A stretch of 32,000 nucleotides of DNA from Geobacter sulfurreducens PCA (GTDB taxonomy: Bacteria; Desulfobacterota; Desulfuromonadia; Geobacterales; Geobacteraceae). This document shows positions 27,754 to 30,451 of the stretch, piece by piece (the stretch's first letter is position 1; each line of letters opens with the position of its first letter). The stretch is from assembly GCF_000007985.2 (NCBI RefSeq), contig NC_002939.5, positions 1,320,001-1,352,000 on the forward strand, written 5' to 3'. The position numbers and the translations under genes were made by a program. The notes under the pieces are model-generated. The model saw only the letters and a list, made by a program, of their open reading frames with translations. It was not told the origin of the DNA and did no database searches.

Positions 27754-28911
27754 ATGGTCGAAGAAGAGGGGATGCGATCCCTGGAGCGGGCTGATCTGGC
27801 CGGCTATGCGGCTCGCAGTTGCCGTTCGCGGGGGCGGATGCACCCGGAAGAGTTCCGGGACGACCGCCCCGCCTTCGAGCGGGACCGGGACAGGATCATC
27901 CACTGTGCGGCGTTCAGGAGGCTGGAGTACAAAACTCAGGTCTTCGTGAACCATGAGGGGGACTACTACCGCACCCGGTTGACCCACTCCCTGGAGGTGG
28001 CCCAGATCGGCAAGGCCATTGCCCGTCGACTCGCCCTGAACGAGGAACTGACCGAGGCTCTGGCCCTGGCCCACGACCTGGGACACACCCCCTTCGGGCA
28101 CACGGGCGAGGAGGTGCTGAACCGTCTGATGGAAGGCTTCGGCGGCTTCGAGCACAATCTTCAGTCGTTCAGGGTGGTGGACCAGTTGGAGGAGCGGTAC
28201 CCCGGCTTCAACGGGCTCAACCTTTCCTGGGAAGTGCTGGAAGGGATCATCAAGCATTCATCGCCCTACGACCGGCCGACCGGTCTGATCGAGGGATTCC
28301 TGCCCGGCGTGGTGCCGACCATCGAAGCTCAGATCATCAACTTCGCCGATGAGATAGCCTACAACAATCACGATATCGACGACGGTCTCAAGTCGGGTTA
28401 CATTACGATTGAGCAACTCAACGGGGTTGACCTCTGGCGTGAGGTTTGGGAGAGGATCGATACCGCCCATCCCGGCCTGGATCGGGAGCGGAAGAAGTTC
28501 CAGACCATAAGCGCGCTGATCGGTCTCCTCATCAGGGACCTGATTACTGCCACCGAGGCGAATCTGCGTGCTTACGGCGTCTCCACCCTTGACGACGTGC
28601 GGCGGGTCAACCGCCCCCTGGTGACCTTCTCGTCCGCCATGGAGGAGCGGAACCGTTCCCTTAAGCGGTTCCTGTTCACAAACCTGTACCGGCACCACAA
28701 GGTGGAGCGGATGCGGGTCAAGGCGGAGCGCTATCTGACGCAGCTGTTCGAGAGTTACGTGAAGCACCCGACGCTGCTCCCCCGCAAGTACCAGCAGAAG
28801 ATGGATACGCTGGGACGCGAGCGCGTGGTCTGCGACTACATCGCCGGCATGACCGACCGCTTCGCCCTTGATGAGTTCAAGCGTTTGTTCGAGCCTTACG
28901 AGCGCGTCTGA
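27754..28911 (+). CDS. dgt: dGTP triphosphohydrolase-like HD-domain protein
   Basis: Contains FERDRDRIIHCAAFRRLEYKTQVF, TRLTHSLEVAQIG, AHDLGHTPFGH, FADEIAYNNHDIDDG and DYIAGMTD. Confidence 0.9.
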   Translation: MVEEEGMRSLERADLAGYAARSCRSRGRMHPEEFRDDRPAFERDRDRIIHCAAFRRLEYKTQVFVNHEGDYYRTRLTHSLEVAQIGKAIARRLALNEELTEALALAHDLGHTPFGHTGEEVLNRLMEGFGGFEHNLQSFRVVDQLEERYPGFNGLNLSWEVLEGIIKHSSPYDRPTGLIEGFLPGVVPTIEAQIINFADEIAYNNHDIDDGLKSGYITIEQLNGVDLWREVWERIDTAHPGLDRERKKFQTISALIGLLIRDLITATEANLRAYGVSTLDDVRRVNRPLVTFSSAMEERNRSLKRFLFTNLYRHHKVERMRVKAERYLTQLFESYVKHPTLLPRKYQQKMDTLGRERVVCDYIAGMTDRFALDEFKRLFEPYERV

Positions 28912-28989
28912 GCGTGCCGGATGTGGATGCGGAGACACGACGCTTGACGGGAGCGCACCTTCTGGTGCATAGAAGATAGATAAAAGCAG

Positions 28990-29103
28990 TTCGATAGACG
29001 ATAAGACTAAACCACCCGCGAGGGTGGGGCGGAAAGCCCACGGGTCTCTCTGAGACAGCCGGGATGCCGAAATGTCGATACGATGTTTCCGTCCCGTTTT
29101 TTT
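28990..29103 (+). promoter_or_regulatory. GEMM-I class cyclic-dinucleotide riboswitch with an overlapping intrinsic terminator (expression platform)
   Basis: The aptamer reads AAGACUAAACC-ACCC-GCGA(GNRA)-GGGU-GGGGCGGAAAGCC-CACGG-GUCUC-ucu-GAGAC-AGCCGGGAUGCCGA. This parallels the V. cholerae Vc2 c-di-GMP-I aptamer as I recall it (CAGGGCAAACC-stem-GAAA-stem-GGGACGCAAAGCC...GCGGGGUUACCGA). The terminator is CGGGAUG(29060-66)-cc-GAAAUGUCG-aua-CGAUGUUUC-CGUCCCG(29090-96)-UUUUUUU. Its 5' arm shares nucleotides with the aptamer P2 3' strand. Confidence 0.75.
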
Positions 29104-29161
29104 GTGCCTGCGTGCTGCCGGTCGGGACGGCAAGACCCCTCTGTTCCGAAAGGAGATCGTC

Positions 29162-29728
29162 ATGAAGAGAGCAGTCCTCGCGTTGTCCCTGGCCTTGACG
29201 GCCGTACCCTGCTTCGCCGCATCCGATGTCGGTTTCGACGTCAACATCAATGTCGGCAACCGACCCCAGGTGGTGGTCCCGGCCCCGCCGCCGGTGGTCG
29301 TTCCCGGCCCGCCCGTGGCCATCGCCGAGCCGCCGGTCTTTCTCGTGCCCCGCTCCCTCGGGTTTTACGTGGCCGTGGGTGTTCCCTATGATCTGTTCTA
29401 TCTCTCCGGCAGCTACTATCTCTGGTCAGGCGATGTGTGGTACCGGTCGAGCCACTACAACGGTCCCTGGGGTGTCGTCAAGTACAAGAACCTTCCTCCC
29501 GGCCTGCGCAAGCACAAACTGGATCGAATCCGCTACCACCGCGACGGAGAGTACCGCGTCTACGAGGTGGAACGTGACCATTACCGGGGCAGGCATTTCC
29601 GGCCCGGCAAGGAATCGAAGCGGGAGCGCAAGATGGACCACGAGCGCTGGAAGGAAGAGCGCAGGAGAGACAAGGACGGTCGCAGGGATCACGGCGGCAA
29701 GGGCCGGGGGCGGGGGCACGACGACTAG
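29162..29728 (+). CDS. Secreted hypothetical protein (signal peptide, Pro-rich segment, aromatic YYLWSGDVWY...GPW core, highly charged R/K/E/D tail)
   Basis: ATG lies 6 nt after AAAGGAG and 58 nt after the riboswitch terminator. The signal peptide is MKRAVLALSLALTAVPCFAAS. The listed start at 29072 would lie inside the riboswitch and was rejected. Confidence 0.75.
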   Translation: MKRAVLALSLALTAVPCFAASDVGFDVNINVGNRPQVVVPAPPPVVVPGPPVAIAEPPVFLVPRSLGFYVAVGVPYDLFYLSGSYYLWSGDVWYRSSHYNGPWGVVKYKNLPPGLRKHKLDRIRYHRDGEYRVYEVERDHYRGRHFRPGKESKRERKMDHERWKEERRRDKDGRRDHGGKGRGRGHDD

Positions 29729-29851: not shown

Positions 29852-29881
29852 AAAAGGGGCCGCTGATGCGGCCCCTTTTTG
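29852..29881. terminator. Rho-independent terminator
   Basis: AAAA-GGGGCCGC-tgat-GCGGCCCC-TTTTT: a perfect 8-bp GC stem. Confidence 0.8.
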
Positions 29882-29927: not shown

Positions 29928-30266
29928 TCAGACGCCTAACACGAGGGGGATCAGGGTGAAAAGGGAATTGCGCTGTGCCCAGGGTAGCACCGCATTGCTG
30001 GTGCCGCATTCCTTTTCACAGGCAAGTCGCGGTACGCGTACGTGAAGATAGGCTGTATAATGAAAGAAATTTTCCCGGTGCCAGATTTCCTGGACCGACT
30101 CCGAAACATGGGCGTGGGCTCCGCAGCGGGGACAGCGGAATGTTCCCCCATGATAGAAATCAATGGTGATATCCATGCGCCGTTCGGTGTCGGCAAAGGT
30201 TATGGCCTTGATTTCCCATGGGGCCGTGAGGCCTAATGTTGCCGCGATGAGTGCTGCTTCGGTCAT
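29928..30266 (-). pseudogene. N-terminal fragment of an ISL3-family transposase (zf-ISL3 region only); IS remnant
   Basis: LGLTAPWEIKAITF...FRCPRCGAHAHVSESVQEIWHRENFFHYTAYLHVRVPRLACEKECGTSNAVLPWAQRNSLFT matches the ISL3 N-terminal zinc-finger pattern (CPxCG...R.WRHL...PR..C..CG....PWA...S.FT). The ORF stops after about 110 aa, whereas intact ISL3 transposases are, as I recall, about 400 aa or more. Confidence 0.7.
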
Positions 30267-30451
30267 GGATGGTATCCCTCGACCCTGATCCGGGAGAGTT
30301 TGAACTCGTTTAGTGCTGTTTATGGGCATTTACACAAAATGTGCCATGGAATTCCTGATGGCATGTTTTCTGCTGGATTCGCAGGTTAGGGCAGGCCGGC
30401 TGCAGGATGGGAGTCCCTGAGCCCTGTCAAATATCGGAGCAGTGAGTTGTC

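Follow-up and report, generated by a model that had tools for sequence, protein, structure and literature searches.

The GSU1247 leader of Geobacter sulfurreducens: a GEMM-I riboswitch bearing the adenine that marks the cGAMP-sensing subclass, and very probably a cGAMP-dependent ON switch

The gene GSU1247 of Geobacter sulfurreducens PCA is preceded by an RNA leader, GSUR3006, which bears the name 'cyclic diguanylate-responsive riboswitch' in the PCA annotation. The locus was analysed within a 32-kb window (the whole stretch of DNA under study, 32,000 nucleotides; positions are counted from its first nucleotide), and the features identified are listed in Table 1. The leader is a genuine member of GEMM-I and carries the adenine typical of the subclass that senses cGAMP; very probably it is a GEMM-Ib riboswitch through which 3',3'-cGAMP switches transcription on. 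As a riboswitch finding, GSUR3006 adds nothing new, since it has been annotated and in vivo data on it have been published. The useful points are the outdated c-di-GMP annotation, the conserved pairing of leader and gene with an invariant adenine at position 20 (A20) and the gene product itself, which is functionally uncharacterised.

Table 1. Features of the GSUR3006/GSU1247 locus (window positions)
Feature	Position	Strand	Basis or remarks
Putative −35 hexamer TTGACG	28944–28949	+	Conservation in orthologous leaders
Putative −10 hexamer CATAGA	28968–28973	+	18 nt past the −35 hexamer; weak match in G. sulfurreducens
GEMM-I (subclass Ib) aptamer	28996–29073	+	RF01051 match; aptamer part of annotated GSUR3006
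Adenine at the Vc2-G20/Gs1761-A14 position	29006	+	Rfam alignment column; A in 33/33 orthologous leaders
GNRA hairpin, six pairs	29012–29027	+	Stem 29012–29017 with 29022–29027; loop GCGA, 29018–29021
A47-equivalent (Gs1761 A41), intercalating adenine	29033	+	Invariant in 33/33 leaders
Second aptamer helix, P2 of the Rfam model	29035–29065	+	AG bulge; one G29036·A29064 mismatch
C92-equivalent (Gs1761 C75), Watson-Crick partner of the ligand guanine	29067	+	Invariant in 33/33 leaders
Intrinsic terminator	29060–29103	+	16-bp hairpin 29060–29096 with CC bulge; U7 29097–29103; by folding
Ribosome-binding site AAGGAG	29150–29155	+	GGAG and ATG conserved in the orthologue alignment
GSU1247 CDS	29162–29728	+	188-aa protein
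Terminator past GSU1247	29856–29880	+	GGGGCCGC-TGAT-GCGGCCCC, then T5; read directly from the sequence

Family assignment and identity of the leader

The entire 32-kb window was scanned with the covariance models of Rfam 15. RF01051 (c-di-GMP-I, equivalent to GEMM-I) was the sole family scoring above its gathering score, with a full-length match (model positions 1–87) to positions 28996–29071 of the + strand at 48.6 bits (gathering score 35). Calculated over both strands of the 32-kb window and all 4227 families, the E-value is 9.7e-7. Membership in GEMM-I, which a reading of this DNA from sequence alone had claimed together with a proposal to search RF01051, is borne out by this score. The strings quoted in that reading are likewise present in the leader, including AAGACUAAACC at positions 29004–29014, the hairpin ACCC-GCGA-GGGU, GGGGCGGAAAGCC, the second stem-loop, and GCCGGGAUGCCGA. 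The outer helix P1 of the aptamer is short, comprising the pairs C28999-G29069 and G29000-C29068. In a permissive search of positions 28900–29200 (301 nt), the top raw score within the clan was obtained with RF03167 (c-di-GMP-I-GGC), the model of which also captures the outer P1 pairs of GSUR3006. Membership in RF03167 was rejected because the score of 51.6 bits is below the gathering score of 59 and because GSUR3006 has A29033 where the RF03167 consensus is G; GSUR3006 further differs from this variant in having A, not G, at position 20.

The ORFs of the window and their Pfam assignments match the PCA genes GSU1244–GSU1247 at a constant offset of 1,323,688, and GSUR3006 at this offset corresponds to window positions 28992–29108. 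In the RNA-seq supplement of Hallberg, Chan et al. (2019, eLife 8:e43959; PMC6456294), these genes appear in the order GSU1244 (methyltransferase), GSU1245 (class II aldolase), GSU1246 (dGTPase-like protein) and GSU1247 (hypothetical protein, 1352850–1353416). The element starts 85 nt past the stop codon of GSU1246, and the Rockhopper transcript end of that gene is at position 28989 (PMC6456294), both of which would suit a chance resemblance, i.e. a mere terminator of the upstream dGTPase-like gene located behind GC-rich hairpins. The probability of such a resemblance is vanishingly small, and the GSU1246-terminator reading was refuted by the covariance-model E-value (9.7e-7), by the conservation of the leader, which accompanies a GSU1247 homologue in 32 other genomes and has its own conserved −35 box, and by the RNA-seq data, in which the signal of the leader exceeds that of GSU1246 (113 vs 46) and co-varies with that of GSU1247 (PMC6456294).

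Full-text literature searches on GSU1247, GSUR3006 and Gs1247 returned no paper, and the locus appears in supplements only. GSUR3006 was reportedly part of the set on which the GEMM-Ib class was established in 2015. It is already known, as one of the 17 GEMM-I elements that have been studied in G. sulfurreducens since that year. Tan et al. (2022; PMC8835794) list GSU1247 among 13 riboswitch genes in their Table S1, and 13 GEMM-Ib riboswitches are given in their main text; according to the same authors, 12 of the 17 GEMM-I aptamers of G. sulfurreducens have been shown to bind cGAMP. In their riboswitch-gene table, GSU1247 is among the more highly expressed genes (rank 666 of 3647). The status of a fresh candidate, which the sequence-only reading had given to the element, was therefore lost, the leader being already annotated as GSUR3006 and its gene being present in Table S1 of Tan et al. 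That reading was right about the family, the nucleotide that determines specificity and the polarity of the switch, and its value is that of a positive control.

Binding pocket and ligand identity

In the RF01051 alignment, A29006 falls on model position 11, a conserved G directly 5' of a two-pair helix, and we take this position to be G20 of the Vc2 aptamer. The two pairs of the helix are C29007-G29032 and U29008-G29031 in GSUR3006, in place of G-C and C-G in the RF01051 consensus. An adenine at the G20 column, a change of the 21-46 and 22-45 pairs and the retention of A47 (29033) and C92 (29067) had all been noted from the sequence alone; each is reproduced by the alignment, and the adenine is found in all of the 33 orthologous leaders described below. 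Vc2, the c-di-GMP-I riboswitch of Vibrio cholerae and archetype of RF01051, has the same fold as GSUR3006, with the GNRA hairpin, P2, A47 and C92. The two differ in that Vc2 has G20 and GSUR3006 has A29006, in that the 21-46 and 22-45 pairs are G-C and C-G in Vc2 but C-G and U-G in GSUR3006, and in their ligands (c-di-GMP for Vc2 and, as proposed here, cGAMP for GSUR3006). In addition, P2 of GSUR3006 is ~12 nt shorter than the RF01051 consensus (5 vs 17 loop positions).

GEMM-I variants that respond to cGAMP are by common consent marked by an adenine at the G20-equivalent position (PMC6140456, PMC9481103), and A29006 provides the adenine by which GEMM-Ib is recognized (A at Vc2 G20 or Gs1761 A14). 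Gs1761 (GSUR3008, the pgcA leader, PDB 4YAZ) is a crystallised GEMM-Ib cGAMP riboswitch, which is also from G. sulfurreducens and also belongs to RF01051. The contact residues of the crystallised cGAMP aptamer are A14, A41 and C75 (PMC5888326), giving spacings of 27 and 34 nt, and the spacings in GSUR3006 are identical (27 nt from 29006 to 29033 and 34 nt from 29033 to 29067); the 27-nt distance is also that of Vc2. By homology to Gs1761, A29006, A29033 and C29067 may thus be regarded as putative ligand contacts. The two leaders also have in common the A at G20, a terminator-based ON switch and decreased expression in the ΔgacA strain. Their target genes are different, Gs1761 controlling the cytochrome PgcA and GSUR3006 a small secreted YXWGXW-type protein; at the sequence level, the comparison of the two leaders covers the pocket spacing.

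GacA is a Hypr GGDEF cGAMP synthase and EsnD is a diguanylate cyclase. The normalised expression values of the GSUR3006 leader in the wild-type, ΔesnD and ΔgacA strains were 113, 164 and 32, respectively, and those of GSU1247 were 431, 579 and 120, respectively (PMC6456294). Both the leader and GSU1247 were thus down ~3.6-fold upon deletion of gacA, with q = 1e-283 for GSU1247 in the comparison of the wild type with ΔgacA (PMC6456294). Published in vivo data on this very leader and gene, both of which are down in ΔgacA (PMC6456294), support the cGAMP responsiveness proposed from the sequence, and this pattern, with a decrease in the strain lacking GacA and none in that lacking EsnD, argues for cGAMP as the operative signal. 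The 3.6-fold drop in RNA-seq signal is also seen in the aptamer region, which pure termination control alone is insufficient to explain; it would fit if terminated transcripts decay faster. In a cGAMP-Sepharose pull-down, neither the GSU1247 transcript nor any other riboswitch transcript was enriched.

These data bear on two other readings of the ligand. The first takes GSUR3006 for an ordinary c-di-GMP riboswitch, in line with its annotated name ('cyclic diguanylate-responsive riboswitch; GSUR3006'), and c-di-GMP-I is indeed its best above-threshold Rfam family. However, this family name is uninformative about the ligand, because no separate GEMM-Ib family is present among the Rfam matches to GSUR3006. 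With the ligand-contacting G20 replaced by A in 33 of 33 orthologues, expression depending on GacA and not on EsnD, and such elements being treated as cGAMP riboswitches in later papers from the groups that have worked on GSUR3006, an ordinary c-di-GMP riboswitch is highly improbable. The A20 signature and the ΔgacA data both point to cGAMP, and the annotated product name is therefore out of date.

The second reading is a dual-specificity switch, in which the aptamer would bind either cyclic dinucleotide, cGAMP or c-di-GMP, at physiological concentrations and GSU1247 would integrate the two signals. A20 is insufficient for selectivity, since binding of both ligands is found in several natural GEMM-I aptamers with A20; protonation of the adenine allows c-di-GMP to be bound (PMC6140456). 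The G20A variant of Vc2 likewise binds both ligands, the natural Cbe 1-2 aptamer prefers c-di-GMP, and the OmcST leader of G. sulfurreducens itself has been reported to be sensitive to both. For GSUR3006, however, dual specificity is unlikely: GSU1247 expression did not drop upon deletion of esnD (431 to 579) but dropped upon deletion of the cGAMP synthase gene (431 to 120), A20 together with the C-G and U-G pairs is strictly invariant in 33 genomes, and what appears to be a canonical G20 GEMM-I aptamer is also present in one of the same lineages (locus L078, described below). Control by cGAMP is thus the preferred reading of the ligand.

Conservation and switch architecture

Thirty GSU1247 homologues were aligned, and 79 homologous loci were fetched from GTDB representative genomes; the comparison covers these loci and the window, with GSUR3006 as the single representative of the 17 GEMM-I elements of G. 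sulfurreducens. RF01051 was found upstream of the gene and on the same strand in 11 of the first 20 loci, and a covariance model, R1, was built from the RF01051 hits of these loci and the window sequence (12 sequences in the seed alignment, with a mean column identity of 93%). With R1, the aptamer of the window (28996–29073) scores 96.9 bits, and the leader was found in 32 loci in addition to the window, the downstream gene being a GSU1247 homologue. The leader-bearing genomes are those of Geobacter, Geotalea, Geomonas and Citrifermentans as well as Desulfuromonadales MAGs. Position 20 is A in all of the 33 leaders, which likewise show no variation at A47, at C92 or in the C-G and U-G pairs, and the tetraloop is always G-Y-R-A. 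This pairing of leader and gene across genera with an invariant A20 supports the view that cGAMP control of the gene family is ancient.

Standard pairs occupy 98.7% of the pair cells (20 pairs in 30 distinct orthologous sequences), and slid controls were 25–53% paired. Compensatory changes on both sides were detected in four pairs, all of which reside in the six-pair GNRA hairpin, and the covariation score was reached by none of 500 shuffles. P2 and the two 2-bp helices exhibit no two-sided change among the 30 distinct sequences and are uninformative on covariation, because most of their pairs never vary.

At the 47 homologous loci without an R1 match, no GEMM-I element was found on the strand of the gene, and hence no G20 version upstream. 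Four pairs of loci originate from the same MAGs (L014/L066, L053/L075, L047/L071 and L044/L078); in each pair, one GSU1247 homologue has an A20 leader and the other is without GEMM-I on its strand, which suggests that GSU1247 paralogues in the same genomes are under different control. At L078, from a Geobacteraceae MAG, an RF01051 aptamer (positions 1045–1124 of that locus, − strand; 55.4 bits) adjoins the riboswitch-free homologue on the opposite strand. By direct reading (…AAAGGGUAAAAC…), this aptamer has G at the G20 position and, if so, this lineage contains both the G20 and the A20 type.

The terminator of GSUR3006 is located between the aptamer and the start codon, 58 nt upstream of the GSU1247 ATG. 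Its stem is formed by the pairing of 29060–29066 with 29090–29096 and of 29069–29077 with 29081–29089, the CC bulge being positions 29067–29068 and the loop AUA, and it has a folding energy of −18.5 kcal/mol with z = −2.85 (RNAfold, 29050–29110). A simple consensus scan missed this terminator, which has a bulged stem; it was found by folding and conservation. In each of the 33 leaders, the invariant aptamer strand GCCGGG serves as the 5' arm of a hairpin, and a run of at least four U within 9 nt past the stem is present in 27 leaders by the criterion of the script used. The 3' arm is lineage-specific, yet complementary in each case (CGGCAACCC in Geomonas and Citrifermentans and CGG(C/U)CCCGGC in Geobacter).

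According to the Rfam structure, the 3' strand of P2 is 29059–29065, and the overlap with the terminator also takes in G29069 of P1; the strict overlap of terminator and aptamer is therefore 29060–29065 plus G29069. The sequence-only reading had assigned 29060–29066 to both P2 and the terminator, which is correct for 29060–29065 and incorrect for G29066, a junction nucleotide outside P2. Its ON-switch terminator stands, given that nucleotides are common to the terminator and the aptamer and that the architecture is kept in all 33 leaders. In the minimum-free-energy fold of the whole leader, the terminator is present and P2 is absent. The energy of this fold is −41.0 kcal/mol, versus −21.2 kcal/mol when the aptamer fold is enforced, both values covering secondary structure only, apart from ligand and tertiary terms. 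These values indicate that the default state is OFF and, combined with the read-through expected from a ligand-stabilized aptamer, default termination would make the element an ON switch. The published RNA-seq data agree with such ligand-dependent read-through. The nucleotides shared by the two structures likewise lead to a ligand-ON transcription switch.

The proposed mechanism would operate as follows. When the ligand is absent, the strand 29060–29066 and the nucleotides from G29069 onward would pair with 29081–29096, and the resulting 16-bp hairpin, with U7 behind it, would make RNA polymerase terminate ahead of the GSU1247 coding region. When cGAMP, the product of the Hypr GGDEF enzyme GacA, is bound, its adenine would be read by A29006 and its guanine would pair with C29067, with A29033 stacked in between. 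Binding would lock P2 (29035–29065) and the short P1 (28999–29000 with 29068–29069), so that the lower terminator stem would be blocked and the polymerase would read through into GSU1247.

Mutually exclusive aptamer and terminator structures underlie the ON mechanism reported for the cGAMP riboswitches of pilM and pgcA. The pilM riboswitch of Geobacter metallireducens (Landgraf et al. 2022; PMC9262584) resembles GSUR3006 in this mutual exclusion. The pilM terminator sequesters the ligand-pairing C75, and that of GSUR3006 takes the strand directly 5' of C29067, the C75 equivalent, as well as G29069. The pilM element controls a different operon, and only for pilM have co-transcriptional kinetics been determined. 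A point against the proposal is the G29036·A29064 mismatch in P2 of GSUR3006; in 31 of the 33 orthologues, U occupies the second of these positions and forms a G·U pair. A29064 pairs with U29092 in the terminator and, together with the mismatch in P2, this pairing should shift the balance slightly towards termination.

Transcription unit and the GSU1247 protein

The 90-nt regions upstream of the aptamer were aligned for the 33 orthologous leaders using a consensus cut-off of 80%. TTGAC was retained at this cut-off, 18 nt ahead of a TAT-like hexamer; the column of CATAGA reads TATTAA, TATCAA or TATAAA in orthologues and is preceded by a conserved T..G.T block. The riboswitch promoter was not called by a simple consensus promoter scan. 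The conserved TTGAC and TAT-like hexamer suggest that the leader has its own promoter, with TTGACG and CATAGA as putative elements, from which transcription would probably start at ~28980, ~15 nt upstream of the aptamer.

An alternative start of GSU1247 at the in-frame ATG at 29072, giving an ORF of 218 aa, was rejected, as this codon lies inside the terminator hairpin and AAGGAG and the ATG at 29162 are conserved. The GC-rich hairpin at 29856–29880, ~130 nt past the GSU1247 stop codon, was unlisted by the simple scan. It is a likely terminator, which makes the unit monocistronic and GSU1247 (29162–29728) the only regulated gene.

The product of GSU1247 matches a protein of G. sulfurreducens at 100% identity. 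Its N-terminal segment resembles a signal peptide and is followed by a Pro-rich linker, a YXWGXW-type core and a K/R/E-rich tail. The core exhibits a weak, borderline match to the PF12779 (WXXGXW) repeat of Pfam, and NCBIfam contains no family for the protein. The AlphaFold2 model has a mean pLDDT of 81.2, with block means of 90–97 for residues 51–150, and contains a confident small beta-sheet and helices; a Foldseek search of this model against the PDB identified no fold relative (best E = 0.97). The earlier description as an uncharacterised secreted protein is still appropriate. Based on the pairing of leader and gene across several Geobacterales genera, the nearly invariant aptamer and the confident predicted fold without a PDB relative, it is conceivable, albeit rather doubtful, that GSU1247 is a core effector, so far overlooked, of the programme of 'transient attachment / metal-oxide respiration' under cGAMP. 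In that case, the riboswitch-free paralogues in the same genomes would have another role.

Between GSU1247 and the histidine kinase gene GSU1249, a 133-aa ORF is present on the − strand (29928–30329), which probably corresponds to the locus number GSU1248, absent from the RNA-seq table. It matches the N-terminal zinc-ribbon of ISL3-family transposases (PF14690) with E = 2.1e-5, just under the curated cut-off, and looks like a truncated IS remnant.
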